The position numbers and the translations under genes were made by a program. Under the pieces are notes generated by a model. The model saw nothing but the letters and a program-made list of their open reading frames with translations. It did not search any database and was not told where the DNA came from. Shown in pieces: positions 31,279 through 62,025 of a stretch of DNA of 64,000 nucleotides. The DNA lies in IMG/VR virus record IMGVR_UViG_2516653058_000003, positions 1-64,000 of that record; one strand, 5' to 3'. Every line of letters begins with the position of its first letter. Position 1 is the first letter of the stretch. Source of the stretch: a virus. Its lineage: Duplodnaviria > Caudoviricetes.

Positions 31279-31939
31279 TGTTTGTTTCCGCAGGTTGGTA
31301 GCAGCGTACACCCAGCACGGGTAGGGGCTGCCTCTGCGGAAACTCCCAGCTTTGCAGTGTTCGGGCACCAGAGACGGGACCCCGACACTGTTGTCAAGCA
31401 GTGAAAAGTATAAACTACTTTCTGTAGAAATCAACAAAATGTAACTTACAGAAGATAAAGATCAACTATAAATACTAATATAACTATTATTTAGTATATT
31501 TTTATTGTTTATTAGTGTTTTTTGTCATTTTGCTTTGTTAGTGGCCCTATGTATTTTTTTCATAGGGGTCGGGGTTGCGATTTTGTTGTTACCTCAACTA
31601 TATAACCCTCACCCTGAAAAACTGAGATATAGGGACTCTAACAAAGGAAATCGACAAAAACACTAATAATGCCAGCGGATTATCAACCGACAGCGCCATA
31701 AAAAACCAAAACCCACCCAAAACCCCACCTTTAACATTTATTGTAAACCAAACAAACAACAATAAATCTGCCAAAAACGCCCACGAAAACACCACCCGCA
31801 AGGCATAAAAAAGCCCCGTAAAGTACCCTTTCCGAGGCCAAATTCAGTAAACTGCATGCGCAGTTTACCAATTTTTGGGTATTATGTCAAGAAAAAGATG
31901 CAATTTTACACCTTGAAAAACACACTTTTTCTGCTTATT

Positions 31940-32167
31940 ATTAGTGTTAAAATAGTAAAACACTAATGAAAACCCCAAAAAACAGGTGTTTCATTAGTGC
32001 TAAAGTAGTAGTCACTATTATGAAAACCCCGGAAAGCGACATCTCTTCGTTTTATACACTTGCAAAACGCAAGCTACAAAATGTCAAAAACGAAGAGATG
32101 TAGCTTTCTGTATAGGTTTCTAGTAGTGACCACTATTTTAGCACTAATGACGGACATATTATTAGTG
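31940..32167. repeat. Nested long inverted repeats with CACTAAT boxes in an AT-rich region (origin-like)
   Basis: 31991-32020 and 32121-32150 are inverted at 27/30. An inner arm GAAAGCGACATCTCTTCGTTTT (from 32032) pairs with AAAACGAAGAGATGTAGCTTTC (to 32108), one mismatch. Confidence 0.9.
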
Positions 32168-32193
32168 CTATATTATTGTTCATTTATAAGTGT

Positions 32194-32223
32194 TTCACTG
32201 TTATAGCTCTAATAATGTATAAT
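32194..32223 (+). promoter_or_regulatory. Sigma70-type promoter for the 533-aa gene
   Basis: TTCACT-N18-TATAAT, 35 bp before the ATG at 32259. Confidence 0.5.
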
Positions 32224-32258
32224 CACAGTTTTATAGAGTCTTAAAAAGGTATTGAAAT

Positions 32259-33860: not shown

Positions 33861-33865
33861 AGCGC

Positions 33866-34012
33866 TATATTTAGAAATGGCCGCGTCGTCTAGTGGTTAG
33901 GGCATGGGTACTTGGAAACGTCGGTTCGAATCCGACTTAATCGTCTAGCGGCCTAGGACACCAGACCGCCGAAACGCAGGTTCGAACCCTGTCGCGGCCA
34001 TTTTTAAATATA
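33866..34012 (+). ncRNA. tRNA-like RNA with two tandem D-arm/T-arm modules and no anticodon arm
   Basis: Acceptor-like stem GGCCGCG/CGCGGCC extended to 20 bp; two TTCGAA T-loops (33920-33936, 33976-33992) and two GTCTAG.GG..AGG.C D-arms. Confidence 0.8.
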
Positions 34013-34077
34013 ACCGGAGATGTAGGCCTGTTGCGGATGGATTCTGGGTGCATTCGATTTTTTACCAAGATCCAACC

Positions 34078-34269: not shown

Positions 34270-34546
34270 AATAAATACTACATTTTGTAATAAATAACAA
34301 AAAGTATATAACGACGATGGTGTATTTTCAATATAAGTCAAATGGGTAATATTTACCCCGCCACGGTTTTCGTAGTTGTTGCGTGGTGGTTCACATATTT
34401 TGGTTTGGGCTTGTGGTTGTTGGGTTCCAATTGCCGCAGGCCCGAACAAACCCAGAACCTTCCCGTTGCGAGAGGTTTCTGGCTTTGTTCCCAGCAAAGC
34501 AGGCCAAGGCAGCACACTTGGAAATTTTAAAATAAGGATAGTGGCC

Positions 34547-35553: not shown

Positions 35554-35560
35554 TCAGCCT

Positions 35561-35629
35561 ACAAACCCTTCCGGCACGAGGGGTTTGTGGGGTGGATTAG
35601 CCACCATTTCAATTTAACAAACCGGAGAC
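35561..35629 (+). promoter_or_regulatory. C(A/G)GCAC-loop hairpin plus ACCGGAGAC RBS
   Basis: 11-bp stem with one G-U, loop CGGCAC 35572-35577; motif at 35621. Confidence 0.8.
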
Positions 35630-35635
35630 AAACTT

Positions 35636-36064
35636 ATGAAACGAACCCACAACATCCTCTGTATTTTAATCACCGCCGTAACCCTGTTTCTCGCGGCCTG
35701 CGGCAACCCCAGCCCCAGCGTCGATTTCGCCACGCTTGAGTCCGCCCGTATGCAGGCCAACGACAACTCCACCTACAATGCCGCCTCTTTCCGCGCCACG
35801 CATCCCGAATACGCCGAATACTCGGTTTCCGCCCGTGGTGATTCCGCGCAGAAAGACAACTGCCCGCAAGGTGACGGCTGGGCCAGTATTGACCTGACAT
35901 TGGTTGCAGGGAATACAAAATCGGTGACAGCCTTGAAATGCTCCACTGTTTCGGAAGCCATCGGTTGCATGGCGGACGTGGACTTCAAGCAGCGAAGCTA
36001 TGCGTCCCAGGATGGGAAGTGCGACACATCACTGCCGTTCCCGTTGCCAAAAATCAAAAAGTAA
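35636..36064 (+). CDS. Lipoprotein with six Cys beyond the lipobox
   Basis: Signal peptide ending LAAC; 142 aa. Confidence 0.8.
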   Translation: MKRTHNILCILITAVTLFLAACGNPSPSVDFATLESARMQANDNSTYNAASFRATHPEYAEYSVSARGDSAQKDNCPQGDGWASIDLTLVAGNTKSVTALKCSTVSEAIGCMADVDFKQRSYASQDGKCDTSLPFPLPKIKK

Positions 36065-36753: not shown

Positions 36754-36754
36754 T

Positions 36755-37112: not shown

Positions 37113-37147
37113 GCAGCAGCACCTGCTTTGGACTGTTAACCGGAGAC
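37113..37147 (+). promoter_or_regulatory. CAGCAC hairpin plus ACCGGAGAC RBS
   Basis: GCAG-CAGCAC-CTGC inside a longer imperfect stem; motif at 37139. Confidence 0.7.
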
Positions 37148-37151
37148 AGTT

Positions 37152-37472
37152 ATGGGGAAATTATCGGAACTCGTAAAGCTGTACAGTTCTTGGAAGGCCA
37201 CCGGCTCTACCGATTCCAAGAAGCAAATAATAGAGCTGTTGCTCCCAGCGACGACAGGCACGGATTTAAAAAATATCCGCCTTCTGTCTGCCAACCAGCT
37301 GCATGTGGTGTTGTCAGTCCAGTACCACAACCGTAACTGGCCAGTTAAACTCCGCGCCACGTTTCACGGCGTGGAAGTTTTGGTGGCCGGTCAAGACCAC
37401 AAAGGGGCGAAGAAGTACATCGCCGAAACATTCGCACGACAGTATATTGGTGGTAGCCATGCAGGAATTTGA
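37152..37472 (+). CDS. Hypothetical protein
   Basis: ACCGGAGAC RBS; 106 aa. Confidence 0.75.
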   Translation: MGKLSELVKLYSSWKATGSTDSKKQIIELLLPATTGTDLKNIRLLSANQLHVVLSVQYHNRNWPVKLRATFHGVEVLVAGQDHKGAKKYIAETFARQYIGGSHAGI

Positions 37473-38048: not shown

Positions 38049-38089
38049 ACCCCTCAGCACAGGGGTAGCACACAACCAAAACCGGAGAC
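38049..38089 (+). promoter_or_regulatory. CAGCAC hairpin plus ACCGGAGAC RBS
   Basis: ACCCCT-CAGCAC-AGGGGT; motif at 38081. Confidence 0.85.
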
Positions 38090-38095
38090 AAAACC

Positions 38096-38935
38096 ATGAA
38101 AAGATACGCACGCTCAATGAAGGTGACCAGCTCACTCCAATCAATACACCCCATCACCGACGACCCGATCATGAAATACGCCCCCAGTATCTTGGCGGCT
38201 GATAAGCATGAGTCCCGTTCTAAGGGGTACACCTATGTGCCTACCATCCAGGTCATAGACAGGTTACGTAAAGAAGGCTTCCAGCCGTTCTATGTGGCGC
38301 AGTCCGGGACACGGGATGAAACCCGTACCGATTTTACCCGCCACATCGTCCGCTTACGCCATGCCGACCATATCGGCAAGACAGACGTCAATGAGGTTGT
38401 CCTCTTAAACTCCCATGACGGTACAAGCTCCTACCAAATGATGGCCGGCGTCCTGAATTTCGTCTGCGCCAACGGCCTGTTTATCGGGGATCTTGTGTCC
38501 AATATCCGGGTGCCACACCGTGGCAATATTGTGGAAGGCGTCATTGAAGGTTCCTACACCATTTTGCAGGAGTTCGAGAAGGTTGACCAAAGCAAGGATG
38601 AGATGAAGTCAATAACCTTGTCGGATTACGAGCGCCGGGCATTTGCCAACAGCGCCATGGCCCTCCGCTATGACCAAGGGGACGAACCGTTCGAACCCAG
38701 TCTCCTGCTATCAACCCGCCGGATGGCGCAACGCGAACCATCCCTGTGGAACACCTTTAACGTGGTGCAGGAAAGCCTGATCCGTGGCGGGGTGCCAGCC
38801 AAAACCAAGGCCGGTAAGCGCACGACCACCCGTGCCATGAACAACATCCCGGAAGCCACAAAGCTGAACCAGGCCTTGTGGATGTTGGCGGAAAGCATGA
38901 CTGGCCTGAAACACAAGCAACTGGAGGCGGCATGA
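38096..38935 (+). CDS. DUF932 family protein
   Basis: HESRSKGYTYVPTIQVIDRLRKEGF, LLNSHDGTSSYQMMAG..FVCANGL and SLWNTFNVVQE signatures. Confidence 0.9.
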   Translation: MKRYARSMKVTSSLQSIHPITDDPIMKYAPSILAADKHESRSKGYTYVPTIQVIDRLRKEGFQPFYVAQSGTRDETRTDFTRHIVRLRHADHIGKTDVNEVVLLNSHDGTSSYQMMAGVLNFVCANGLFIGDLVSNIRVPHRGNIVEGVIEGSYTILQEFEKVDQSKDEMKSITLSDYERRAFANSAMALRYDQGDEPFEPSLLLSTRRMAQREPSLWNTFNVVQESLIRGGVPAKTKAGKRTTTRAMNNIPEATKLNQALWMLAESMTGLKHKQLEAA

Positions 38936-40614: not shown

Positions 40615-40942
40615 AAACATTTACACAAATGGCAGCCCAAGGCGATTTATTAATTCGTCGAATTTAAAAATTACCGGAAGGTTTAACGAAAATTGAACCA
40701 AAAGATGGGAAACTGGCCACAATCATGTTATTGCAGATAATCCAAACGTCACCTTATTCACCACAGGCGACCTAATGATTAGTTACTTAAAAGTGGTTGA
40801 ATCGTGCGATTAAGTTGAAACCATACTCGAACACCTACGGACATTTGACACCCACGAAGCCATCCAGATCCCTGCTGGAGTCTACGAGATCCGCCGCCAA
40901 CGCGAATACACGCCACAAGGTTGGCGGCGCGTCGAAGATTAA
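40611..40942 (+). pseudogene. Conserved DUF6745 partner gene with two TAA stops and a frameshifting deletion
   Basis: QGDLLI..*..GHNH..*..HEAIQIPAGVYEIRRQREY; stops at 40665 and 40811; frame change near 40712. Confidence 0.8.
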
Positions 40943-40955
40943 TACCTCTTAACAA

Positions 40956-40999
40956 CCCCAACTTCAACAGCACTTGAGGTTGGGGCACTCACCGGAGAC
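40956..40999 (+). promoter_or_regulatory. CAGCAC hairpin plus ACCGGAGAC RBS
   Basis: 12-bp stem with one G-U; motif at 40991. Confidence 0.88.
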
Positions 41000-41004
41000 C
41001 TACA

Positions 41005-41295
41005 ATGATTACCATAGATGAAACCTGTGCACGCCGCCGGGCGTGGCACGCCGCCGCTAGTATCCCTGTCATTGATATGAGTCCACTACACTCGGAAGAG
41101 CTGAAGGACTGTTTCATTAACGACATCTGCAACTGTGTCGAAACCGACACCTTTTTTTCCGATTGGTTAGAAGAGAACTACCCGGACATCGAGTCATTTA
41201 ACGGTTTCGATGACCTGACAGTTTTACAGGTGTCTGAACTGGTTAGAAGTTCAGCGGAAGAAATCATAACCACAGTGTTGGAGCTTCCATTATGA
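41005..41295 (+). CDS. Hypothetical acidic protein
   Basis: ACCGGAGAC RBS; 96 aa. Confidence 0.7.
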   Translation: MITIDETCARRRAWHAAASIPVIDMSPLHSEELKDCFINDICNCVETDTFFSDWLEENYPDIESFNGFDDLTVLQVSELVRSSAEEIITTVLELPL

Positions 41296-41380
41296 GCACT
41301 CCAACCCCTGCCCAAGCTATCCAAATAGCCAAAACCCGCCGGACGTGTACACCACAGACCCAACTGACATTCAAGAATAA

Positions 41381-43474
<2,094 letters not shown>

Positions 43475-43496: not shown

Positions 43497-43542
43497 GCAA
43501 CCACCTTTCAGCACAAAAGGTGGTTGCCAACATACCGGAGAC
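43497..43542 (+). promoter_or_regulatory. CAGCAC hairpin plus ACCGGAGAC RBS
   Basis: GCAACCACCTTT-CAGCACA-AAAGGTGGTTGC. Confidence 0.88.
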
Positions 43543-43547
43543 AACCA

Positions 43548-44216
43548 ATGACCGACGTACAAAGAAACAGCTATGGAAGTATTCTTAACCCCCCTCAATT
43601 TGTCCAGACTTTGTTAATGGACGCTGAGAGAAAGGGCTGCTGGGAGACAGGTATAGCAGCAGACAAAAAGAATCGCGGATCCTCTATTAACATAGCAGTG
43701 TATGGGTTCAACGAACTTGAACAACTAGCTGTTGTACAGGTCCGAGAATGTCAGTTCCACCCTCGGCGGTTTAATAGAGTACGGAAAGATTATTACCTTT
43801 TGGGTAGGATAGAAAGTGGGGAGGTGTTTGCACACGCTGTAGATAGCCCATGCCGTTCAAAATTAGCTATGTCCAACCCACAATACTGTGTCGATTATGT
43901 ACTATCAAAAATATGGCAGTGTCATATCGACGACATCAAAGACATTATCCGACAAGGAGATGTTGCACTAATCCCTATCATCAGCATACCCGCCACGGCA
44001 ACACCTGTAGAAGATGCAGTGGTGATACGAGAAACGCACAAAGTTACAGGGGATGTTTTTAAAGACACTTCTGGTGTGTTGTATTGTAGACGCGGAGCTA
44101 AGATAACACATACCAAAGGAGAACATGCTACGATAAAGGCACGGTCTGGATTTTATCGCATACAACCAGGATACCGAGCTAGTGTTTGGGGTTTCTCTAC
44201 ACCTACCCCAGATTGA
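43548..44216 (+). CDS. Hypothetical protein; C-terminal domain related to the 40611 pseudogene
   Basis: Start moved to ATG 43548 by RBS; RQGDVALIP..HTKGEHATI..GFYRI. Confidence 0.75.
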   Translation: MTDVQRNSYGSILNPPQFVQTLLMDAERKGCWETGIAADKKNRGSSINIAVYGFNELEQLAVVQVRECQFHPRRFNRVRKDYYLLGRIESGEVFAHAVDSPCRSKLAMSNPQYCVDYVLSKIWQCHIDDIKDIIRQGDVALIPIISIPATATPVEDAVVIRETHKVTGDVFKDTSGVLYCRRGAKITHTKGEHATIKARSGFYRIQPGYRASVWGFSTPTPD

Positions 44217-44604: not shown

Positions 44605-44748
44605 AAGGAGATTTTATGGGCGCACCACACCCTCAATGCCTTTGACGTGTACCCAAACCTGAACCATCCCAATCGGCACAAGTATGCGCAAGAACCTGTC
44701 ACTTTACCGTCTAAGTCCGAAGTTTTAATCGAAGAACAGTAACCCCAT

Positions 44749-44795
44749 GGTCACCATTTTTCAGCACAAAAATGGTGGCCAATCTAACCGGAGAC
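44749..44795 (+). promoter_or_regulatory. CAGCAC hairpin plus ACCGGAGAC RBS
   Basis: 13-bp stem with one G-U; motif at 44787. Confidence 0.88.
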
Positions 44796-44801
44796 ATACC
44801 T

Positions 44802-46430
44802 ATGACAATATCCCAACTGATTACCGACGAAGTCGAGCAATTTTTCGCCCCTGTATCAACTGACGCAATCAATGCGCTAATTAGCAAGTACCAACGAGAC
44901 CGAGTTCAACTTGAATCGGTTTCTAATATAGTTCTGGATGGTCTCAGCTCAGTATTCCACTACTTCACGAGTGGCAACCTCAAAGGAGAACGATATATCA
45001 GCGTAGCTCCATCCACATTGTTTAATCCTGTTGGCGCAGTGGCATCCCTTAATTCGGCTTATTGGTCACAAGCATTAGCTTTGACTGATGTGTTGGATTT
45101 CATGCCACAAAAACGTAGGGAGGAGTGGAATACACAAATCCACGAAATGACCACGCCGGATTTTGTTGAAGATACGGTGCGTGCCACCCTCATGGATTTA
45201 ATTTTAATGCGGTCCCAGTTCTTTTCCGAGCGGGTTGACGGGGTGTTCCGGGCATTGTCGAAAAGTCACGTAACCAACACCCCGGAAGGGTTCAACAAAC
45301 GGATGATTATTGAAAACGTCATCAGCTCTTACGGCACGGTCGAGTATAACAAAGCCGGATACATTCACGATCTCCGTTGTATTGTGGCGAAGTTTATGGG
45401 TCTGGAAGACCCGTCCGGCCATATCACCGGTAGGCTGATTGACCGGATAAAGAACACCCCTGGCGAATGGGTAGAGCTTGATGGAGGTGCTTTGAGAATC
45501 AAAGTATTCAAGAAAGGCACAGCACATTTGGAAGTCCACCCTGACATGGCGTGGCGATTGAATGCGGTTCTGGCCAGCCTCTACCCCGCTGCTATCCCAT
45601 CTAAATTCCGCACCAAGCCGGAATCCAGACCTAAAGAGTATCGCCTTATCCAGCAGCCAATATCGACTGACGTACGGGAGATGTTATATGAAGGGACTTA
45701 TTTCGATGAATCCAACTACCAACGTGTCGGCTCGGATCATCAGAAATACCTTAAAAGAATTCACTCATTTTGTTTTAAATACACATCCAAAGAACACCCA
45801 ACCACACTGTCTGCAGCAAAAGCTGCTTTAGAAGCTATTGGTGGTGTTGTGCAAAGCAACGGCGAAATTTGGTTCGACTACAACGCCAGAGACATTATCC
45901 AAGAAATTATCATCCGTGGTTGTTTACCGGACGACAAGTCACATCAATTCTACCCTACCCCTAAGTGGTTGGCAGAACGTTTGGTGGATATGGCGGAGCT
46001 GGAACCGGATATGAAGTGTCTGGAGCCTGAAGCTGGCCTGGGGGCGATTGCTGACGTGATCGCCGAGCGTATCCCCAACGACAAAGTAGACTGTGTGGAA
46101 ATATCGGAGCTGCGTTGCGAAGTGCTGAAGGCCAAAGGGTATATGACGTTGTGCAAAGACTTTTTGACCATGAAATATGACCATAGATTGTTTAAACCTT
46201 GGCCGCGAATCATCATGAACCCTCCGTTCAGTGAAGGACGTGCTTTAGCACATGTTAAGCACGCCTCGACTTGGCTGACTGAGGATGGCATCCTGGTTGC
46301 CATTATGCCTGCAAGTTACATTGGCAAAGATATTCTGCCGGGATTCCATATCACATGGTCTGAACGCATCGACAACGCCTTTGACGGAGCTGGCGTGTCA
46401 GTAGCCTTAATGAAAGCAGTAAAGAAGTAA
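44802..46430 (+). CDS. DUF4942-domain class I SAM DNA methyltransferase
   Basis: QFYPTP, LEPEAGLG SAM-binding motif and MNPPF catalytic motif; N-terminal DUF4942-type region. Confidence 0.85.
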   Translation: MTISQLITDEVEQFFAPVSTDAINALISKYQRDRVQLESVSNIVLDGLSSVFHYFTSGNLKGERYISVAPSTLFNPVGAVASLNSAYWSQALALTDVLDFMPQKRREEWNTQIHEMTTPDFVEDTVRATLMDLILMRSQFFSERVDGVFRALSKSHVTNTPEGFNKRMIIENVISSYGTVEYNKAGYIHDLRCIVAKFMGLEDPSGHITGRLIDRIKNTPGEWVELDGGALRIKVFKKGTAHLEVHPDMAWRLNAVLASLYPAAIPSKFRTKPESRPKEYRLIQQPISTDVREMLYEGTYFDESNYQRVGSDHQKYLKRIHSFCFKYTSKEHPTTLSAAKAALEAIGGVVQSNGEIWFDYNARDIIQEIIIRGCLPDDKSHQFYPTPKWLAERLVDMAELEPDMKCLEPEAGLGAIADVIAERIPNDKVDCVEISELRCEVLKAKGYMTLCKDFLTMKYDHRLFKPWPRIIMNPPFSEGRALAHVKHASTWLTEDGILVAIMPASYIGKDILPGFHITWSERIDNAFDGAGVSVALMKAVKK

Positions 46431-46436: not shown

Positions 46437-46478
46437 ACCAACCCTCAGCACAGGGTTGGTAACCACCCCACCGGAGAC
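46437..46478 (+). promoter_or_regulatory. CAGCAC hairpin plus ACCGGAGAC RBS
   Basis: ACCAACCCT-CAGCAC-AGGGTTGGT. Confidence 0.88.
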
Positions 46479-46486
46479 CCACAACA

Positions 46487-47586: not shown

Positions 47587-47892
47587 ATGAAAGCAACCTT
47601 AACCGTCATCACAACAACAATGATAGAAGTAACCGTTGACGACAACATCTTTACTCCGGCAGAGTTGAATGAGTTTGAGCAGAATATGTTTGCCTTAGAT
47701 TCCCACGCCACCCGCGAACATAGCCTACTGTCTTACATAGGAATTCAAATAGCTATTTCTGAAGGTACTATAGAAGATATTGAATGTGTGGGAAAAGCTA
47801 CCCGTAAAGCTTTGGTGCGGGAATTTAACCCGGTAGTCCGTTTTGACATAATAGACACCGATCATGAAGTTGAAATTAGCGAGGAGACTTGA
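47587..47892 (+). CDS. Hypothetical acidic protein
   Basis: 101 aa, tightly packed between neighbours. Confidence 0.65.
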   Translation: MKATLTVITTTMIEVTVDDNIFTPAELNEFEQNMFALDSHATREHSLLSYIGIQIAISEGTIEDIECVGKATRKALVREFNPVVRFDIIDTDHEVEISEET

Positions 47893-48203
47893 TGGCCAAA
47901 ATCATACCCCTTTTTCCAAACCGACCGCCTGACGATAAAACCCAGCCGTCAGGGAATCCCAGAACCTACACCCTGGAGCAACTTTCAAAAGGCATCGGCA
48001 TCGCGCTCCTGGTCACCAAAGACACCCTGGCCGCCCGGTTTTTGTTGGGTAAATTCAACCATGCTGTAAACTCCAGCCATTATGACATTGAGTTTACATA
48101 TCAGGAGGTTATACAGTACGCGGATTATCTGGACCCGGACAAGTCTCGACGGTACAACGAGTTGGCCATACAATTACTTCATGCGTACTATTCCACTCCC
48201 TGA
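47889..48203 (+). CDS. Hypothetical protein
   Basis: 104 aa, GAGGAG RBS. Confidence 0.6.
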   Translation: MMAKIIPLFPNRPPDDKTQPSGNPRTYTLEQLSKGIGIALLVTKDTLAARFLLGKFNHAVNSSHYDIEFTYQEVIQYADYLDPDKSRRYNELAIQLLHAYYSTP

Positions 48204-48221: not shown

Positions 48222-48264
48222 TGATCCCCGGTGCAGCACACACTGGGGATCACATACCGGAGAC
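48222..48264 (+). promoter_or_regulatory. CAGCAC hairpin plus ACCGGAGAC RBS
   Basis: 12-bp stem with one G-U; motif at 48256. Confidence 0.88.
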
Positions 48265-48268
48265 GAAC

Positions 48269-48358
48269 ATGACACACCCATCAGCCCAGCTATGGGCAAT
48301 AAGTCCTTATTGCCTTTCAAATCTCCAAACATGGACACCTAGAATTTTTAAGGGGTAG
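48269..48358 (+). CDS. 29-aa leader ORF before the primase
   Basis: ATG at proper spacing from ACCGGAGAC; TAG ends 3 nt before the primase GTG, same frame. Confidence 0.45.
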   Translation: MTHPSAQLWAISPYCLSNLQTWTPRIFKG

Positions 48359-54016: not shown

Positions 54017-54141
54017 ATTCCCAAAACAATAACCGGAGACAACAAATCCAGGCTAGTAACAATTGAACCCAGCACACCACACCCGCAAAGGACGGGTTAT
54101 TTAATCCTTTACCGTAATTTTTTAACAACTGGAGACACAAA

Positions 54142-54966
54142 ATGGCTTTATTAAAACCTGTAGTACCTGTTACAACCTTACCTGAAACTGAAACCGTGCC
54201 TGTCGCATCAGTTCAGGAAACTACAACACACACCCCTACCGTGGACCCTGTGGTGCTCGAAACATTTGCGCCGTTGGAATCATCAGCCCCAGCCCAACAG
54301 TTGGCCGAAGTCCCTGCAACTAACACAGCCGTGGCCACAACTTCCCCACCGGCAGAACCTGTGTCGGGAGGGCATCTTACGATGAGGGATTTCTCTGAGG
54401 CCGGTTTCAACGGCCTTATCGTTGACTCCCGTACATTTCCGATCATCAACCTGAAGAATGACGGCCACTTCAAGGACATGGATGATTTTGATTATGGTAC
54501 GGAAATGCGCGGGCGGCTTCTCTCCTCCGCAGAGAAGATCGTGATGACTGCGAAATACCCAGACCCGTATAAACCAGGAACAAACCTGGAAGACGTGGTG
54601 TTTTGCATTGACGAAACTCGCCTTGCGTCTGGCCGGCTGGTTTCCGATTGGAAAGAAGAAATGGTTAAACGCGGTGGTTCTTCCCAATTTGGAACAACGT
54701 TCGAAGAGCGCCGTTACACAGACGTGTTAGTGGTGGTTGACCAGCCGGGAGTCGAGTACGACGGTGAAATGCGTATCTGGTCTATTGCGCCGACATCCCG
54801 TGGCCGCCTGACAGGGGTTCTAAACATCATGGCAGCAAAAGCCGGATGGAAAACAGCCCAGGAACTGAAGGAACATATGTCGGAAAAAGTGGTGGTGGCA
54901 AGCGTTGGGGCAGCGGTGCCACATGATAAAGGGTCGTTCTATCCTTGGAACTTCAAGGCGCTATAA
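54142..54966 (+). CDS. Putative ssDNA-binding/replication accessory protein
   Basis: Pro/Thr/Glu-rich N-terminal tail and beta-rich core ending FYPWNFK; directly upstream of the polymerase. Confidence 0.5.
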   Translation: MALLKPVVPVTTLPETETVPVASVQETTTHTPTVDPVVLETFAPLESSAPAQQLAEVPATNTAVATTSPPAEPVSGGHLTMRDFSEAGFNGLIVDSRTFPIINLKNDGHFKDMDDFDYGTEMRGRLLSSAEKIVMTAKYPDPYKPGTNLEDVVFCIDETRLASGRLVSDWKEEMVKRGGSSQFGTTFEERRYTDVLVVVDQPGVEYDGEMRIWSIAPTSRGRLTGVLNIMAAKAGWKTAQELKEHMSEKVVVASVGAAVPHDKGSFYPWNFKAL

Positions 54967-54983: not shown

Positions 54984-55030
54984 CCCCTACACCCAGCACG
55001 GTGTAGGGGAGTTTTACATTAACCGGAGAT
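54984..55030 (+). promoter_or_regulatory. CAGCAC hairpin plus ACCGGAGAT RBS
   Basis: CCCCTACACC-CAGCAC-GGTGTAGGGG. Confidence 0.88.
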
Positions 55031-55035
55031 AATTA

Positions 55036-58000
55036 ATGAACATCAAGACCCTGTTCGATTTACGGGGTATGGTTATCCATGCCTTAAATGCCAGCACCGA
55101 CCGTGAACCCATCACACTCCCCAGCGGTGAAAAGGCCAACAGCGTTGGCCACTGCCTCAATAATTTTATTGAGATGTACCTGCTGCCAACCATACAAGAA
55201 ACCCGCCTGAACGATATTATTGCTGTCAGAGACGGCGGCAATGAATACCGTAAAGCACTGTATCCTGAATACAAAGCCAACCGGGCAGGTAAAGACCCGG
55301 AGCTGTCAATCCACCATAGCAATTGCGTCAATGCCGTTATTGACCTTTTAAAAGGCCTGGGCATACCGGTTGCCGAAATCCCTGGAGTTGAGGCGGATGA
55401 CATCCTGGCCTATCTGGTAGAGAAATTACCAGGTCCTAAGATGATTTACACAGTAGACCAGGACCTACTGCAACTGTCCTCCCCCGACTGCCTGGTTTTT
55501 TTGAAAACCCAAATCAACACCGACGGGTACGCCCTTTATAACTGCAGCGGATCCAGCAAGCAACTGTTGATGACGGTTCATCCACGGCATGTGGCCTTGC
55601 TGAAATCCATTGTTGGGGATTCGTCGGATAATTATGGCGGCGTAAAAGGCGTGGGGCCTGTGGCCTTTGCCAAACTAGCAGAAGTCTACGGATTGGATGG
55701 GTTAGATGAATTGTGTTCAATTATTAGTAAGGATGGTTATGCCACCTTACAAGAAGTCATCAACCAAACAGGGGACAAAACCTTGGTGGCCTTGTTTGAG
55801 CGCCGTGACGAGTGGAAACTAGGCTGGAATCTGGCCAACCTGGCCCCGCAGCTGGTCGGCGAGCGTAAAACCACCAAGTTCAATAACATCATTTGGACGA
55901 AGCGCCTGCCCAGTCCAGAGCGTGTCAACCGCATCTTGGCTGAACATGGTTGCGGGTATCTCTACCCAAAACTAAAACCGGTACTCCCAACGAAAACACT
56001 GATTACAGCGGACAACATGCCGCCATTGTCTCGTTTTGAAAGTGCGTTCAAACAATCCGAAGTCATCGCCGTTGACTGGGAGACCACGGATTACCTACAG
56101 CACCAACCTTTTCGTGATGCAACCAAAGGCCGTGAATTTGTTGACATGCTATCTGCCAAATTGACAGGGTCGGGTTTTACCTTCGGGCGAAATTACGAAC
56201 ACACAATATATGTGTCGTATGACCATGCAGACACTAATAATTTGCCACGGGAAACGCTGCTGGATTTACTGGGGGTGATACCGGACGAATCAGTTATAGC
56301 TATTCAAAACTGCCTACCTGGGGATGTGGAGGTTCTAACTAGAGATGGTTGGGCGTGTATAAAGGACACGAATTGCAGCCAAGAAATTATGCAATGGGAT
56401 AGTACAACAGGAGAGTTGTCTTTTGCCCATCCGACACAGAAAGTAGAGGCGGACGCTGACACTCTTTTGAAGTGGGACACGTTGTACCACTCTTGTACCT
56501 ACACACCAGAGCATCGAATGTACTTCCAATCAAATCACTGCTTCCCTAAGTGGAAGGCGGAACCTTGTAAGCAAGTATCTGAGTATCATCCGAATACTGT
56601 ATACATCCCTCTAGCAGGCATATACAACCACCCTTCTGTTCAATTGACGGAGGCCGAGGCTCGGCTATTGGAAGCGATACGGGCCGATGGGCATTTCCCT
56701 GTGAACAGATCTAAGCAGATTAAGTTTCACTTCATAAAACAACGAAAGATAGACCGGCTCCTAGAATTGTGTAGGGAGGCAGGGATCGAGACTGTTGTAG
56801 TTAAAGAAACAGATGGGTCGGTGCGTGTAACACTACAATCAAGCTCTTTGGTAGGTAAGTTTAGAAGCTTACTGGGGGTAGAACGACGTTACACAAAAAC
56901 TCTGGTACTGTCTTTGGATATAAAGGCCAGAGAATATATCCTTGATGAGGTTAAGTTTTGGGACGGAGGCTCTGTATATAAGAAAGGTGCTCACTTTTAT
57001 TCAATAGATGTGGAGACTGTGGACGCGATCCAATTAATGGCTCATATATCTGGGTGGCGGTGTTCTGGTTCATGGGGGGGGAATAAAAAGGGGTATGGGC
57101 TACTAAACGGTAAAAACATCTTTAGAGGGACACTGTACCCAAGATCACGAGCCAAATTAATGCAGACCCCTGTTGAGGTGCCACATAACGGAAAAGTATT
57201 TTGTTTTTCTGTACCTTCTGGGGCGTTTATGGTGCGTTCGAAAGGCAAGATACATATTACCGGAAACTGTATGTTCGAAAATACAGTGCTCCGCTGCAAT
57301 TTTAATGGTGCCTTTCTGACGAATTGCCACGACACCAAGGTGATGGCTAGCTACGTCGATGAAAACCAACCGGCAGGCTTAAAAGACCGGGCATTACTAC
57401 ACCTCAACTACAGACAAACCCATTACGGTGATGTGATCGCCAAAGGCAAAACGATGTCCGACTACTCCGCCGAGCATGTGTTCCAATACGGCGCAGACGA
57501 CCCGCTAGTCACTGCCCACTTATATGATTTCTACAAAATGATCATGCAGATCGAAGGCACGTTTGACTTCTGTGTGGCCAATGAAATGGAACCTATTGAG
57601 ATGATCTCGGAAGGGTTCATCGCCGGGGTGTCGGTGGATTGGGATGAATTGGAACGGCAAGGCATTGAAGACCGCAAAACTTTGGATGAGTCCATCGTTA
57701 AGATCAGGGAGCTGATCGTAGCAAACCAAACTGAAGAGACCATCGAATCCGGTGTTGACCGTATCTACTCGGAAGATGTTGAAGAAGTGGTGGCGCGGGT
57801 CAATACCGACTTCAAGGCGGGCAAATTTAACGGCCTGGCCGACCCGGCAGAGCTGGTTCGTGACCGTGAGATTTCCGCCAAATCTATTGCCCTGCGGAAG
57901 AAGTTGGAAGGGTTGGTAACCTATCAGCCGTATGTCGAAACGTCCGTTGATGCCGCCATTGATATGACCCCGTCCGACATCAACCCCCTGCTGGAAGGTC

Positions 58001-59766
58001 TGGGAATACCAAAACTGGAAGCTGGGACCGACGCGTTGCAAGGTTATAAGCTAGCCGATTTTTTGAAAAAACAGCAACTGGTTTCTGACTGGGCAAAGCC
58101 TTACATGTCCAACTCTCCCGAAGCGGCCACATTCTTACGGTTGTTGGTGCCTGCTGTAGCTTACAACGACACCGCCAAAACCAAACTCGCTAAAGGTGAA
58201 GGGCGTGCCCACCAGGTCTATAAAGAATGGCAGGAATATGCAAAAACCTTGAGGGGAGAGAAGGTGAAAGTGTCCTCAACCGGGTTCGAAATGAACCTTA
58301 ACTCCCCCCTGCAAATGAAAGCGCTGCTGTACGGCATGTTTGACTTGCCTGCCCGTTTACGTGGTTTCGAAATCAGCGACACCCGCAAGGCGTTGGGTCT
58401 GGTAACCCCCACCATCCAAGCCAATGAAGATGCCATAGTCACGGCATTGGCGGAAGACTGTGCAGACCATTCCTGGAAAAAAGAAGCCTTGGAAGCGTTA
58501 ATGGCGGCGAAAAAATGCCAAACCCGTATCAGCATGTTTTACGACGTTTATCCAAAATGGCAACATCCCGTTGACGGGCTAATCCACCCTCAGGTTAACA
58601 GTTGTGGGACAGAAACCAGACGCCCTACGGGTTCGTCCCCCAACCCACTACAATGGCCTAAGCGAGGGGACGGGGTTAAGTTTCGTAACTGCATCCTACC
58701 TAACGAAAAGTTGGGTCACGACCTGATTGTGTCAATAGACTGGAGCCAGCAGGAGCTTCGTATTGCGGCGGCCTTGTCGATGGATGAAGCCATGCTGGAT
58801 TGTTATATTGGGAAGGATGTCGAACATGTAATATCTGGCGACGTGGAGGCGTTGCTGGGCGAAGCCCTATTGTCTAGGTTCCTTAAAACAAGCACGAAAG
58901 ACATCCACACCCAAACCGCATCAGGTCTGTTGAAGTGGGCATACGATGATGTGGTGGCCGCGTTATCTGGAGATGATAAAACCCTAGCTAAGACTGCTAA
59001 GGATGCGCGTGTTACGTCGAAACCCATCAATTTCGGGGGCACCTATGGTATTGGTAGCGGCAAGCTTGCCAGGCAGTTAATTTGCCCTATCACAGAGGCC
59101 AAACAATATTTGGCAGATAAAAAAGCGCTGTATCATGGGTTTGAGCGTTGGCGTGAAAACGTCATCAACCTCGTCTGCCAGCAAGGGTTTGTCACCACTG
59201 CCTTCGGCAACCGCCGCCATGTGTTCGACCAGATTACCACCCAAGACGAAGGGCTATGGGCATCTGTCTGCCGCCAAGTGGTGAACTACCTTATCCAAGG
59301 AGTTTGTGCCGATAACTTGAAGCGCACGATGACCGCTATCCGGCAGCAAGGCATAACACAACGCACTGGTGCGGTGCTTATAGCTCCGATCTACGATGAG
59401 TTGGTGTTCTCAGTACACAGCAGCAATGCGGTTGACTTAATCATGAATGTCCACAGCATCATGACCAGGGATATACCAGGAATGGCGGTGCCGATGTTGG
59501 CTGAGCCTTCCTTGGGGATCAACTTTGGGGTGCAGGTAGAAATCGGGGCGTTCCCGACACCTGAAAAAATCGAATCGGCAATGTCTAAGGCTTTTGCTGT
59601 GCCACGGCAGTTGTGGGTTCATTATGGGTCGGATTCCTATATCGAAACCCATGACTTACGGGATCTCAAACACTTAGCGGAAGTGCCTGAAGACTTGTAT
59701 GACGTGACGGATATACCGGAGCATGAAGAACGGTTTAAACAGCAAATATTACAAGTAGCCGCTTAA
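55036..59766 (+). CDS. polA: Family A DNA polymerase (5'-3' exonuclease, 3'-5' exonuclease, polymerase) containing an intein
   Basis: EADDILA, DQDLLQL and GDSSDNYGGVKGVG (5' nuclease); DWETT ExoI; DWSQQELR motif A; KPINFGGTYG motif B; YDEL motif C. Confidence 0.95.
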   Translation: MNIKTLFDLRGMVIHALNASTDREPITLPSGEKANSVGHCLNNFIEMYLLPTIQETRLNDIIAVRDGGNEYRKALYPEYKANRAGKDPELSIHHSNCVNAVIDLLKGLGIPVAEIPGVEADDILAYLVEKLPGPKMIYTVDQDLLQLSSPDCLVFLKTQINTDGYALYNCSGSSKQLLMTVHPRHVALLKSIVGDSSDNYGGVKGVGPVAFAKLAEVYGLDGLDELCSIISKDGYATLQEVINQTGDKTLVALFERRDEWKLGWNLANLAPQLVGERKTTKFNNIIWTKRLPSPERVNRILAEHGCGYLYPKLKPVLPTKTLITADNMPPLSRFESAFKQSEVIAVDWETTDYLQHQPFRDATKGREFVDMLSAKLTGSGFTFGRNYEHTIYVSYDHADTNNLPRETLLDLLGVIPDESVIAIQNCLPGDVEVLTRDGWACIKDTNCSQEIMQWDSTTGELSFAHPTQKVEADADTLLKWDTLYHSCTYTPEHRMYFQSNHCFPKWKAEPCKQVSEYHPNTVYIPLAGIYNHPSVQLTEAEARLLEAIRADGHFPVNRSKQIKFHFIKQRKIDRLLELCREAGIETVVVKETDGSVRVTLQSSSLVGKFRSLLGVERRYTKTLVLSLDIKAREYILDEVKFWDGGSVYKKGAHFYSIDVETVDAIQLMAHISGWRCSGSWGGNKKGYGLLNGKNIFRGTLYPRSRAKLMQTPVEVPHNGKVFCFSVPSGAFMVRSKGKIHITGNCMFENTVLRCNFNGAFLTNCHDTKVMASYVDENQPAGLKDRALLHLNYRQTHYGDVIAKGKTMSDYSAEHVFQYGADDPLVTAHLYDFYKMIMQIEGTFDFCVANEMEPIEMISEGFIAGVSVDWDELERQGIEDRKTLDESIVKIRELIVANQTEETIESGVDRIYSEDVEEVVARVNTDFKAGKFNGLADPAELVRDREISAKSIALRKKLEGLVTYQPYVETSVDAAIDMTPSDINPLLEGLGIPKLEAGTDALQGYKLADFLKKQQLVSDWAKPYMSNSPEAATFLRLLVPAVAYNDTAKTKLAKGEGRAHQVYKEWQEYAKTLRGEKVKVSSTGFEMNLNSPLQMKALLYGMFDLPARLRGFEISDTRKALGLVTPTIQANEDAIVTALAEDCADHSWKKEALEALMAAKKCQTRISMFYDVYPKWQHPVDGLIHPQVNSCGTETRRPTGSSPNPLQWPKRGDGVKFRNCILPNEKLGHDLIVSIDWSQQELRIAAALSMDEAMLDCYIGKDVEHVISGDVEALLGEALLSRFLKTSTKDIHTQTASGLLKWAYDDVVAALSGDDKTLAKTAKDARVTSKPINFGGTYGIGSGKLARQLICPITEAKQYLADKKALYHGFERWRENVINLVCQQGFVTTAFGNRRHVFDQITTQDEGLWASVCRQVVNYLIQGVCADNLKRTMTAIRQQGITQRTGAVLIAPIYDELVFSVHSSNAVDLIMNVHSIMTRDIPGMAVPMLAEPSLGINFGVQVEIGAFPTPEKIESAMSKAFAVPRQLWVHYGSDSYIETHDLRDLKHLAEVPEDLYDVTDIPEHEERFKQQILQVAA
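56311..57267 (+). mobile_element. Intein (319 aa) with LAGLIDADG-type endonuclease
   Basis: Starts CLPGDVEVLTRDGW, ends KVFCFSVPSGAFMVR..IHITGN before Cys; internal LLEAIRADG and VKFWDGG blocks. Confidence 0.92.
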
Positions 59767-59797
59767 GGGGGTATTTATATCAGCACAACGTAAACCA

Positions 59798-60022
59798 TTG
59801 GACACATCCAAAAAGGACCGGCGTACCGAAGCAAAAGCCCTTAACACCCAAATCCTGGTGTCGCGGGGCGTTACGTTCGAATCCCTTAAAGACGGGTATC
59901 ATTTAATTATCCGTATGGGCAGTAGGCGCATCCATTACTGGCCGTCAACCGATAAATGGATGGAAAACCGCAAGCCCGTGAGGTATGGGATAAAATCGTT
60001 GTTGTCGTGCCTAAACGCATAA
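59798..60022 (+). CDS. Hypothetical basic protein
   Basis: TTG start; IHYWPSTDKW motif. Confidence 0.55.
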   Translation: MDTSKKDRRTEAKALNTQILVSRGVTFESLKDGYHLIIRMGSRRIHYWPSTDKWMENRKPVRYGIKSLLSCLNA

Positions 60023-60081
60023 ATGACATAAATTCCTTATCGACAATCCGCGCAACTTACCTTATATTGTAGCCTCACTTA

Positions 60082-60129
60082 TCCGGCATGGTTGACAGCA
60101 CCTTCCATGCCGGACACCAAACCGGAGAC
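60082..60129 (+). promoter_or_regulatory. CAGCAC hairpin plus ACCGGAGAC RBS
   Basis: TCCGGCATGG/CCATGCCGGA outer stem, loop CAGCAC 60096-60101; motif at 60121. Confidence 0.8.
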
Positions 60130-60132
60130 ATT

Positions 60133-60897
60133 ATGGATACCTCGATCCCCTACACTCTAGTAGTGTTTGATACGGAGACGACTGGCGTTGACCCAACGGT
60201 TGACGAAGTTTGCCAGTTCGCCTGTATCGCCATCAAAAGCACCCACCCCGAAAATATCGTCGAATTTGAAAGCCTTTGCGACCCTGGCCGGCACATCCCT
60301 GAGGAGGCCATAGCGAAGCATGGCATACCTAACGAAGCCGTAGTTGGAAAGCCTAAAACCCGAAATCTATTAAATGAAGTTATGGCGGAACTTTTCGAGT
60401 TTGCTGCCGGAACCCAGCTGATCCTTGGCGGCCATAATACAAAATTCGACTGGAATTTCTTGCAGAAGCATGTGTTCATCCCTGATGACACGCTATCTCT
60501 TTGCACACTCCGTATGGCTAGGGTGTTGGCACCTAATTCCGATAACCACCAACTCGAACACCTCTACAGAAACCACTACTCCCTGCAATCCCCACGAACA
60601 AAAACCGCGCACGATGCGCTATGTGACGTGTGGATGAGTTATGAGCTGCTGAATCACTGGCTGTCCCAGCGCCCTGACCTGTCAATACTTGAAATCGCTG
60701 ACGAACTCAAGCTCCCTATGAAGCTTGAGACGATGCCGTTCGGCAAAAATAAAGGCCGCCCGTTCTCTGAGATCCCGTATAAAGCCCTGCGTTGGTATGT
60801 GGATCAAGGCAGTGCTATGGATCAGGATGTTAGATTTACGGCAGGAGTTTGGTGTAAGCTATGGGAAACCCCAGCAGAAATGATGGCAAGAGGTTAG
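60133..60897 (+). CDS. DEDDh 3'-5' exonuclease (DnaQ/ExoX-like)
   Basis: FDTETTG, HNTKFD and AHDALCD motifs; C-terminal MPFGKNKG as in ExoX; start moved to 60133. Confidence 0.9.
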   Translation: MDTSIPYTLVVFDTETTGVDPTVDEVCQFACIAIKSTHPENIVEFESLCDPGRHIPEEAIAKHGIPNEAVVGKPKTRNLLNEVMAELFEFAAGTQLILGGHNTKFDWNFLQKHVFIPDDTLSLCTLRMARVLAPNSDNHQLEHLYRNHYSLQSPRTKTAHDALCDVWMSYELLNHWLSQRPDLSILEIADELKLPMKLETMPFGKNKGRPFSEIPYKALRWYVDQGSAMDQDVRFTAGVWCKLWETPAEMMARG

Positions 60898-61334
60898 AGC
60901 AAACCATACAGGCAGCCCTACAGCAACACCACCTGCATAATAGGTCTAATTTCGTCCGCCTATATGACCAGACATCGACAGGAGGTAGAGGGTTCGCGTT
61001 GCCTGGGGACTTCTATTGGTTTGTGCCTGGTAATGCAATTTTGATTGAATGCAAATCAACTGCAATCTGTAAGCCGCTACTATCGCTGGTACGGTCGTCT
61101 AAACACAGTAAAGACCAGATACCACGGCACAGATTGCACCATTTGTCAGGACATCCCAGCGTCTATCTTTATGGGGACTTACTAAACGATGAAATAACCG
61201 CATACGACGGGGAGTCCGTGGTGGCTGCGGTTAATGAAAAGAAAAAGGACTTGGTAATAATTTCAAAAGCAGATATGTCGTCTACAGGTGGGCTGTTAGA
61301 CAACATTATCCAACATATCAGGAGCTGTAAATGA
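60861..61334 (+). CDS. RecU-like PD-(D/E)xK Holliday junction resolvase
   Basis: GKRLE..PGDF..LIECKS motif order. Confidence 0.7.
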   Translation: MGNPSRNDGKRLEQTIQAALQQHHLHNRSNFVRLYDQTSTGGRGFALPGDFYWFVPGNAILIECKSTAICKPLLSLVRSSKHSKDQIPRHRLHHLSGHPSVYLYGDLLNDEITAYDGESVVAAVNEKKKDLVIISKADMSSTGGLLDNIIQHIRSCK

Positions 61335-61978
61335 GTGATTTAACTAAGAAGCTTAGCCAATACATGAAACCGGGGACTTACAAAAAAGGGGAAAACATAA
61401 CCATAAACCTGGCCCAATTCGACGGGCTAATTATTGTCGATAAAGGCATCTGCCTTGTGGAGACTAGCCGGGAATCTGCAAAGGCACGCGGCAAATATGA
61501 CGTGTCCGTAGGGGTGTTGAAACCAGAAGGGTCGATGATCGGACTGGAATTCTTCTTTGTTCCGCAGACCCTAAGATATCCCGCCTCAGTGAGGTCTGTC
61601 ACCGATTCCGACGTACGGACAATGACCAGGAAAAAATTCGCCAGCCTGCTGGATACAGAACTTGCAAGTATCAAGACTTTCATCTTCGAGGAGATTGCCA
61701 GGCAACTGGCGGATTATTTTAACTCCCTGCAATTGCAGTTGGAGCGGCAGGCCAAGGCGGCGCCAGAGGATAGGGTATTGGATGTGTTTGAGCACGTCAG
61801 GCCTATCGTAGGAACCCCCCACCCAGCAGGTACCGAAATAAAGATACCAACGTATGTCCTGCAGCGGCTGGCGGGGGATTCCCCCCGGTCGTTTCAGGAA
61901 GGGGCCAAACGCCTCATGCAGGAAGGGAAGTTGTTAAAGTCAGGGAGGGCTTCATGGGTGTTACCAACCCATAACTAA
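61331..61978 (+). CDS. Hypothetical protein
   Basis: 215 aa, AGGAG RBS. Confidence 0.7.
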   Translation: MSDLTKKLSQYMKPGTYKKGENITINLAQFDGLIIVDKGICLVETSRESAKARGKYDVSVGVLKPEGSMIGLEFFFVPQTLRYPASVRSVTDSDVRTMTRKKFASLLDTELASIKTFIFEEIARQLADYFNSLQLQLERQAKAAPEDRVLDVFEHVRPIVGTPHPAGTEIKIPTYVLQRLAGDSPRSFQEGAKRLMQEGKLLKSGRASWVLPTHN

Positions 61979-61982
61979 CCAC

Positions 61983-62025
61983 AGGCTGCCGCAGCACCGG
62001 CAGCCTTTTAACAAAAACCGGAGAC
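61983..62025 (+). promoter_or_regulatory. CAGCAC hairpin plus ACCGGAGAC RBS
   Basis: AGGCTGCCG-CAGCAC-CGGCAGCCT. Confidence 0.88.

Follow-up and report, generated by a model that had tools for sequence, protein, structure and literature searches.

The temporal classes of phage genes are usually explained by promoters and terminators, and post-transcriptional control of a whole class is known in detail mainly from T4. In the RegB/S1 system of that phage the early genes are marked by a GGAG Shine-Dalgarno element together with an A-rich single-stranded segment, and early messenger RNA (mRNA) is selectively inactivated (PMC1702504). Here we describe a family of hairpins, with a nearly constant CAGCAC loop on stems of variable sequence, that precedes most of the replication genes of a temperate siphovirus-like prophage; most of this prophage is contained in a stretch of 64,000 nucleotides, namely positions 1 to 64,000 of the IMG/VR virus record IMGVR_UViG_2516653058_000003, hereafter the window, whose numbering is used below. 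The family is conserved in a clade of phages, with covarying stems that fold on the sense strand, and is anchored to a downstream ribosome-binding site that is unusually open, typically the box ACCGGAGAC. It looks like an undescribed shared control signal for the replication-gene class. As we tentatively read it, at a little under an even chance, the hairpin would be an RNA operator or enhancer of a class-specific translation-initiation cassette, with its loop read by a trans-acting factor.

The nearest precedents in function would be the translational operators of T4 and the RegB/S1 system, and in form the hairpin resembles boxB, the coat-protein operators and the CAGUGN loop, although it has the defining features of none of these. 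The hairpin operator of T4 gp43, the RegA sites and the coat-protein operators of MS2 and PP7 are RNA elements at or upstream of the Shine-Dalgarno element through which a phage protein controls translation, and in the case of gp43 and the coat proteins the operator is a hairpin recognised specifically through its loop; the gp43 and MS2 operators are, however, single sites and those of RegA are unstructured, whereas here one hairpin type precedes an entire gene class. The RegB/S1 system shares with the present family the marking of a temporal gene class by a Shine-Dalgarno context of its own (PMC1702504), but its consensus leaves no place for C downstream, whereas 28 of 34 modules here (a module being a hairpin with its box) have C after GGAGA, the box has conserved ACC 5' flanks and a hairpin stands upstream. 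A homologue of RegB (PF10715) is absent from the genome. The intercistronic C(UUCG)G hairpins of T4 are likewise numerous and share one loop on variable stems, but UUCG closed by a C-G pair is a loop of intrinsic stability that the host employs too, whereas here the closing pair varies and the host is without the loop. The PeSL cassettes of T4-type phages combine a repeated stem-loop with an expression signal before early genes and sometimes bracket inserted genes (PMC2839356, PMC4122927); their conserved part is a sigma-70 promoter with part of the stem, whereas here it is the loop and the Shine-Dalgarno-like box, a promoter-like site being present in just two to three of 35 modules.

A covarying hairpin family in the replication arm

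The window corresponds to G000:C1:922810-986809 of a complete 4.69 Mb chromosome (50.7% G+C), in which the prophage occupies about 80 kb. The structural arm lies on the minus strand (~1-27.1 kb) and encodes terminase gpA, an S49 protease, capsid, tape measure and tail proteins. It is followed by a regulatory region with operator-like repeats and canonical U-tract terminators (27.4-31.3 kb), an AT-rich stretch (31.4-32.2 kb) and a plus-strand arm for replication and nucleotide metabolism, which extends ~9 kb beyond the window end and encodes an NAD-ligase, a methyltransferase, a primase-helicase, SNF2, Pol A, an RNase T-type exonuclease and SbcCD. All twelve loop positions that a preceding sequence-only reading had listed as clear were recovered as described, including the CGGCAC variant at 35572, and the genes it had named downstream of them (ligase, methyltransferase, primase leader, Pol A, exonuclease and SbcD) are those found there. 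Its weaker copies fared less well, in that the hexamer at 54070 and 59781 lies outside any hairpin loop, while those at 31313 and 34510 do have stems of 4-5 bp but no ACCGGAGAC box.

Hairpins of this type with a stem of at least 6 bp number nine on the plus strand of the arm and none on its minus strand, whereas first-order Markov simulations average 0.047 and never exceed 2; similar numbers in randomised sequence or on the minus strand, which had been named as grounds for abandoning the proposal, are thus not seen. Genome-wide, 12 of 34 such hairpins fall within this 35 kb stretch. The CAGCAC hexamer itself occurs 26 times on the plus and five times on the minus strand of the arm (8.3 expected), an excess accounted for by the hairpin copies and a few weak or non-loop copies. 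A covariance model (R1) was built from 24 copies, as had been proposed, its E-values being rough owing to a shortened calibration. Over the 4.69 Mb genome all its matches at E<=1 lie inside the prophage and on the plus strand, the only additional one in the window being weak (E 0.44) and antisense to the tape-measure gene (at 9320). R1 also matches the motif-bearing relatives described below, and a search of 151 genomes (G000 and 150 relatives) gave one chance match outside G000. A scan of the whole window against Rfam 15 at E<=1 returned one tRNA-like match and two chance matches, and permissive scans of three hairpins (two in 40930-41430, one in 44720-44810) gave sub-threshold microRNA and small-RNA noise of 10-16 bits; no Rfam family matches the hairpin, so that a match to an already described motif, likewise named as a ground for abandoning the proposal, is not seen. 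A targeted full-text search of the literature likewise found no description of a CAGCAC-loop motif.

Of the cells of the 24-sequence alignment 89.6% form standard pairs; shuffling lowers this share to 43%, and displacing the partner by 1-3 columns to 32-46%. Both sides vary in each of the ten stem pairs, with a covariation score of 1.14 versus 0.22, and the compensatory changes are found in homologous as well as paralogous copies, as is generally expected of a structured cis-regulatory RNA. The stems of 34 copies contain 318 Watson-Crick pairs, 20 G·U pairs and two other mismatches, but no A·C pair; therefore it is the sense strand that folds and is selected, either as RNA or as plus-strand single-stranded DNA. 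The G·U pairs noticed earlier in four stems (35561, 40956, 44749 and 48222) were confirmed.

This strand preference bears on two rival explanations. The virion RNA polymerase promoters of N4 are also variable-stem hairpins with a specific loop before phage early genes, but these fold in the template strand of the DNA, with loops of 3 nt, and depend on a giant virion polymerase, whereas the fold here is that of the sense strand, with its 20 G·U and no A·C pairs, and not the template-strand fold of an N4-type promoter. A 2131-aa open reading frame (ORF) considered as a virion RNA polymerase is a tape-measure-type tail protein. A T7/N4-type RNA polymerase was not detected in the genome with PF00940, a weak negative because this model has no match in any control genome either. 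Alternatively, the hairpins could act as single-stranded DNA on the lagging-strand template of a rightward fork leaving the AT-rich stretch at 31.4-32.2 kb, where the primase-helicase or another replication or recombination protein would read them. The plus strand is indeed both the sense strand and the lagging-strand template of such a fork, every copy lies to the right of this candidate origin at an average spacing of ~2.6 kb, and among the products of the arm are an archaeo-eukaryotic-type primase-helicase, SNF2, SbcCD and ligase. We nevertheless hold a DNA-level role to be quite improbable, given that G·T pairs are poor in DNA, that the minus strand of the structural arm lacks copies although a leftward fork would need them, and that neither the close association with the ribosome site nor the co-occurrence with ACCGGAGAC has a replication rationale.

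The loop reads CAGCAC in 22 copies, CAGCACA in seven, CAGCAT(A) in four and CGGCAC in one, giving the consensus C-R-G-C-A-Y. The closing pair is variable (CG 12, GC 7, UA 7, AU 6, UG 2), and the stems, which are C/A-rich in the 5' arm and G/U-rich in the 3' arm, are continuous without a conserved bulge, while the unpaired flanks contain just 6% G. The iron-responsive element, to which IRP1/aconitase binds, has a CAGUGN hexaloop with a C1-G5 pair and, five pairs below, a bulged C. The likeness of the present hairpin to it is one of form alone, comprising a six-base loop that starts with CAG, a free stem, occurrence in several mRNAs of one regulon and control of translation from the 5' untranslated region (5'-UTR), the last two being putative for the present hairpin; here loop positions 4-5 are CA rather than UG, no C1-G5 pair is possible and there is no bulged C. 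The GGCAC of the variant loop recalls a sigma-54 promoter, whose consensus has an invariant GG, but the majority loop has AG at this position, and this candidate was rejected.

No complement of the loop that could form a pseudoknot or kissing partner occurs within 150 nt on either side of the hairpins, and a GTGCTG in a non-coding hairpin at 29515 was set aside as a loop partner, its single copy being the chance expectation. Pairing with ribosomal RNA (rRNA) was rejected as well: the sole GUGCUG in the host 16S rRNA lies in helix 34, in a region that is itself paired, and there is none downstream of the 16S gene (spacer and presumed 23S). As the loop is constant and exposed while the stems vary, a loop-specific trans-acting reader at the RNA level appears to be the best inference, and to this extent the protein-based proposal of the sequence-only reading is favoured by the sense-strand selection, the covariation and the confinement to one arm; its suggestion of antitermination is not, for reasons given in the next section.

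Anchoring of the hairpin to the ribosome-binding site

The window contains 19 copies of the box ACCGGAGAC, although 1.35 would be expected; the plus strand holds 18 of them and the plus-strand arm 17. Its GGAG lies 5-10 nt from the start codon, a distance consistent with a Shine-Dalgarno element. The 16S tail of the host is canonical and can pair with the GGAG alone, which suggests that the conserved ACC and AC flanks of the box are kept for another reason; no rRNA complement to these flanks was found in the host 16S or in the sequence downstream of it. The genes of the structural arm and of the host use ordinary AGGA/GGAG-type sites in A/T-rich contexts. An unrelated viral contig, L074 (IMGVR_UViG_3300027861_000114), has no hairpins but places a (C)ACCGGAGA (CCGGAGA) box 6-8 nt ahead of five or more start codons, so that the box is not unique to this clade.

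The predicted unpaired probability from -16 to +6 is 0.635 in module genes versus 0.469 in genes of the structural arm (p=2.5e-6). Such markedly more open ribosome sites could also be explained without any reader, were the hairpin merely to insulate an open ribosome site or block exonucleases, its loop being kept because it folds well, and the T4 intercistronic hairpins with their conserved loop provide a precedent (PMC1702504). Yet unusually stable loops depend on their closing pair, which varies here, the loop is not used by the host genome, and the hexamer is also conserved single-stranded, outside a loop; an explanation by structure alone thus strikes us as improbable.

The stem ends 0-15 nt from the box, or 25 nt in one case, whereas the end of the previous ORF lies anywhere from 0 to 341 nt upstream, which indicates that the hairpin belongs to the downstream cistron. 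Within the window the gap between stem and ACCGGAGAC is 3-25 nt, and the 5-35 nt previously given for the distance to the ribosome-binding site has to be amended accordingly. From the loop end to the GGAG the distance is 9-46 nt (standard deviation 4.9), and stem and spacer lengths are uncorrelated (rho 0.06-0.14). This lack of a fixed geometry between loop and box rules out a two-part promoter of the -35/-10 type composed of CAGCAC and ACCGGAGAC, the spacing being broad and uncompensated by stem length. A U-rich tail (five or more T among the first 8 nt beyond the stem) follows just 5 of 34 hairpins, in agreement with the earlier remark that most copies lack a U tract, and in a terminator scan of 27-47 kb the copy at 41390 was the sole one of the hairpins to be flagged. 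As the U tract is mostly missing and the position tracks the downstream box rather than the upstream gene end, most copies are not intrinsic (Rho-independent) terminators.

Transcription signals of other kinds can be envisaged, such as factor-dependent terminators, nut-like antitermination sites, or N4-type or two-part promoters. The canonical terminators at 29.35-30.85 kb, upstream of the arm, make some antitermination plausible, a few hairpins do have U-rich tails, and a conserved loop on a short stem is boxB-like in form. The lambda-type nut site with its N protein is indeed a short hairpin in a phage early transcript whose loop is recognised, but boxB has a GNRA-like pentaloop, is paired with boxA and occurs twice per genome after promoters, whereas here there is a hexaloop, no boxA and ~15 copies, each tied to a ribosome-binding site. 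No boxA-like sequence was found 5' of the hairpins, position counts of the 5' flanks showing stop codons and A/C richness alone, and no N-like antiterminator turned up in the Pfam and PHROGs scans of small early ORFs, which were not a dedicated search. Moreover, ~15 copies per genome far exceed what processive antitermination needs, and U tracts are missing from most copies. Position follows the downstream gene and not the upstream stop, the spacing from loop to box is loose and unrelated to stem length, the G·U pairs become A·C mismatches on the template strand, and no phage RNA polymerase of T7/N4 type was detected. Transcription signals are on these grounds very doubtful, and the hairpin-type promoters once suggested for these elements are disfavoured along with antitermination. 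Because the hairpin tracks the ribosome site, and three copies follow sigma-70-like promoters, a role in the 5'-UTR or in translation initiation is preferred over antitermination or 3'-end formation.

These promoter-like sites belong to the junction of Pol A and the exonuclease: in the window and in the related locus L084 (TTGACA-17 nt-TAAACT, itself after a strong terminator) a sigma-70-like promoter immediately precedes the module, and L083 offers a weaker case. A promoter-like score of at least 9/12 upstream of the hairpin is reached in 2 of 35 modules, versus 1.5% of random positions, and a stem-loop coupled to a sigma-70 early promoter, as in PeSLs, is accordingly not what is found. In the promoter-proximal copies the hairpin would be ~7-13 nt from the predicted transcript start. 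Since a few modules, and not most, follow promoter-like sites, the module appears to work both within polycistronic RNA and near a primary 5' end. An endoribonuclease of host or phage might instead read the loop and cut the polycistronic RNA beside the hairpin, leaving a protective 5' hairpin on the downstream message. The association of the hairpin with the downstream cistron, its closeness to the predicted transcript start where a promoter precedes it, the need of long operons with few promoter-like sites for internal processing, and the single-stranded, G-poor flanks would all fit such a stabiliser. There is, however, no conserved cleavage motif in the 5' flank, neither a RegB homologue nor another RNase domain was seen in the ORFs scanned, and RNase III would need longer stems than the 4-18 bp found here; we consider processing unlikely, if still deserving of attention.

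Conservation in relatives and the putative reader

Homologues of the 953-aa primase-helicase, which has DxD and GKKGFH motifs plus a P-loop, are found on metagenomic contigs at 37-58% identity. Five motif-bearing loci, syntenic with the window, were recognised among them (L081, L083 as extended by L217, L084/L085, L086 and L087), so that six genomes, mostly as partial loci, sample the clade. Their modules comprise a hairpin with a CAGCAC, CAGCACA or CAGCAT loop, a short spacer, the box (A/T)CCGGAGA(C/T) and a start codon, and they often occupy the same gene junctions as in the window, their stems having no sequence in common. The arm of L217 runs up to an integrase and there meets a minus-strand tail arm without R1 matches. 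Hairpins and box are both missing from the more distant L088 and L089 (~26% identical) and L090 (32%, partial match), which have ordinary hairpins. At one orthologous junction, upstream of a 274-aa gene, L083 and L084 repeat the layout of the site at 54070 in the window, and the conservation of a single-stranded CAGCAC outside a loop in all three suggests that the exposed hexamer may be what matters. L084 also has, at 2344, 4484, 7047, 7661 and 17542, a second repeated element, an almost perfect palindrome of ~23 bp, conserved in sequence and with TTTAA after it, which lies a few nucleotides upstream of several CAGCAC hairpins and looks like an operator or terminator.

The clade was not met with more widely. 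Pattern scans gave 77 single matches in IMG/VR, none with a hairpin, and at least 120 in JGI metagenomes, with no hairpin among the matches listed; blastn against phage GenBank entries found no relative. A protein search of 61 related genomes (G000 included) with the primase-helicase found it in G000 alone, and a scan of genome contigs yielded just motif-less relatives of 28-32% identity, in a Methylotenera metagenome-assembled genome and in Bordetella tumbae.

The arrangement of modules also recalls boundaries of mobile cassettes, in the manner of PeSLs, where the module would mainly be a recombination site for gene shuffling, a function that could coexist with a role in expression. In L086 a 169-aa minus-strand gene with a signal-peptide-like N-terminus (2475-3086) sits exactly between two complete modules, its stop codon overlapping the ACCGGAGAT box of the first. 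A 29-aa ORF in the window and a 146-aa gene in the relatives stand behind the same module, and PeSLs are themselves composite stem-loop and expression signals upstream of early genes (PMC4122927). But the shared sequence of 6+9 nt is too short for homologous recombination, and the modules keep to conserved junctions of core replication genes across deep divergence, which makes gene shuffling highly improbable as their main purpose.

In the translation-initiation reading, the hairpin formed in the sense-strand RNA would be the upstream half of a composite cassette with the order hairpin, 0-25 nt of G-poor unstructured spacer, ACCGGAGAC with its GGAG core, 3-8 nt and start codon, and nearly every independently initiated cistron of the replication arm would use it in this one temperate siphovirus-like clade. 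The stem would need only to pair, the exposed loop C-R-G-C-A-Y being the part recognised. We infer from the sequence pattern that a trans-acting factor binds this loop, most probably an RNA-binding protein of the phage or part of the ribosome platform, with activation or repression as its possible effect. Docked at the 5' edge of the ribosome-binding site, it could set the translation, and thereby the mRNA stability, of the entire replication-gene class together.

Several observations weigh against this reading. No RNA-binding domain was found by Pfam and PHROGs in the ORFs of the arm, and a comparison of its ORFs of unassigned function with Pfam, PHROGs and a protein atlas returned nothing related to RNA. 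The sole such protein common to the five motif-bearing loci and undetected by BLAST in L088/L089, that of a 104-aa ORF at 47889-48203, has no informative match. The closing pair is not conserved and the distance from loop to Shine-Dalgarno element varies, so that any joint contact with the ribosome must be flexible. The module at L086 2489 precedes the minus-strand gene instead of a plus-strand start, and a module can therefore persist without a cistron to control. Lastly, as the T4 UUCG hairpins illustrate by analogy, a conserved loop need not imply a protein.

A bolder step, which we consider possible but somewhat doubtful, is that hairpin and ACCGGAGAC form the cis half of a previously unknown post-transcriptional regulon of phages, in which a dedicated factor would read ~15 sites per genome and switch the replication class on or off. 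If true, this would be the hairpin-operator counterpart of T4 RegA/RegB control, in uncultured temperate phages of which one is a prophage in a host carrying pmoA/amoA. The replication module appears to have its own structured, loop-specific initiation cassette, conserved over deep divergence with unusually clean covariation. The hairpin family is a ready candidate for a new RNA family and could lead to a new RNA-binding regulator or a signal for ribosome recruitment, while the module might serve as a compact, context-insulating expression cassette. As the host genome is complete and the element sits in a prophage, the family is directly testable.

Individual modules and neighbouring features

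All modules in the window lie on the plus strand. Module 1 (35554-35638; R1 27.5 bits) has its hairpin at 35554-35595, the CGGCAC loop at 35572-35577, a ACCGGAGAC box at 35621-35629 and the ATG of a 142-aa ORF at 35636; the stem has 14 perfect bp, or 18 bp if one G·G mismatch is allowed. Module 2 (37113-37154; R1 23 bits) is weak, with a 4-bp stem (hairpin 37113-37126, loop 37117-37122, box 37139-37147, ATG 37152). A 6-bp hairpin at 38049-38066 (loop 38055-38060) forms Module 3 (38049-38098), with the box at 38081-38089 and the ATG of a DUF932 protein at 38096. Module 4 (40956-41007), with a 12-bp hairpin at 40956-40985, loop at 40968-40973 and box at 40991-40999, precedes a 96-aa ORF (ATG 41005). 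The NAD-dependent DNA ligase (ATG 41426) follows Module 5 (41382-41428), whose 8-bp hairpin (41382-41403, loop 41390-41395) has a U-rich tail and whose box is at 41413-41421. Module 6 (43497-43550), which R1 matches though it is outside the seed alignment, carries a 7-nt loop (43509-43515) on 12 bp (hairpin 43497-43527) and leads through a box at 43534-43542 to a 222-aa ORF (ATG 43548). The DUF4942/methyltransferase gene (ATG 44802) is preceded by Module 7 (44748-44804; 14-bp hairpin 44748-44781, loop 44762-44767, box 44787-44795), and the gene of a GP88/DUF7227-like protein (ATG 46487) by Module 8 (46437-46489; 9-bp hairpin 46437-46460, loop 46446-46451, box 46470-46478).

Module 9 (48222-48271), with a 12-bp hairpin at 48222-48252, a 7-nt loop at 48234-48240 and the box at 48256-48264, stands before a 29-aa leader ORF (ATG 48269; 48269-48358) whose end lies 3 nt from the GTG that opens the 953-aa primase-helicase ORF; in this place, behind the same module, relatives have a conserved ~146-aa gene that is absent in the window. 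DNA polymerase A (1576 aa, ATG 55036) follows Module 10 (54984-55038; 10-bp hairpin 54984-55009, loop 54994-54999), whose box at 55022-55030 ends in T. In Module 11 (60040-60135) a promoter-like TCGACA-17 nt-TATATT at 60040-60068 is followed by the hairpin (60083-60113), which has a 9-bp stem around a 13-nt loop containing CAGCAC at 60096-60101, the box (60121-60129) and the RNase T-type exonuclease (ATG 60133). Module 12 (61983-62032; 9-bp hairpin 61983-62006, loop 61992-61997, box 62017-62025) precedes the SbcD-like phosphoesterase (ATG 62030), and three more copies lie just beyond the window end, at 3288, 6166 and 8642 of the adjoining stretch L002. A degenerate module (29905-29967) has a 5-bp hairpin with a CAGCAC loop (29905-29920) and ACCGGAGAC at 29959-29967, with no start codon at the usual distance. 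In the variant site at 54070-54144 the unpaired CAGCAC (54070-54075) has on its 3' side another kind of hairpin (54081-54097), which bears a T-rich tail and is followed by a CTGGAGAC box and an ATG at 54142.

The regulatory region contains repeated operator-like palindromes, TGTGACA...TGTCACA (28053-28110), beside a minus-strand helix-turn-helix gene (27547-27909). Four canonical U-tract terminators (29345-30850) fall within the first 3 kb of rightward transcription, which implies some read-through control upstream of the replication arm. Directly 3' of a 533-aa orphan ORF, Rfam detects a 122-nt tRNA-like element (33879-34000; 36.5 bits, above the gathering score) in which ARAGORN calls no tRNA, and after it comes a ACCGGAGA box without a start codon at the usual distance. 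In the ~320-nt gap after Pol A (59767-60040), a T-loop-like stretch, GTTCGAATCC, near 59875-59895 is possibly another tRNA-like fragment. Pol A itself (55036-59766) has ~830 unassigned residues among its 1576, between the 5'-3' exonuclease and polymerase domains. As the relatives have either fused 1214-aa proteins or split proteins of 445+762 aa, the shorter or divided forms suggest that the Pol A of the window carries an insertion, possibly an intein.

Beyond the window the arm continues in L002 2112-8623 (window end +2.1 to +8.6 kb) with a MazG-like protein, a 435-aa protein with a PF18909 dATP/dGTP diphosphohydrolase domain at its N-terminus, a dCTP-deaminase-like protein, thymidylate synthase (ThyA) and DHFR, a nucleotide-metabolism cluster that hints at altered deoxynucleoside triphosphate pools or modified DNA. 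Host genes return at ~9.9 kb of L002. About 35 kb upstream of the prophage, at G000:C1:888248-888961, the host has a pmoA/amoA-family gene (433 bits), and it is therefore probably a methane or ammonia oxidiser.

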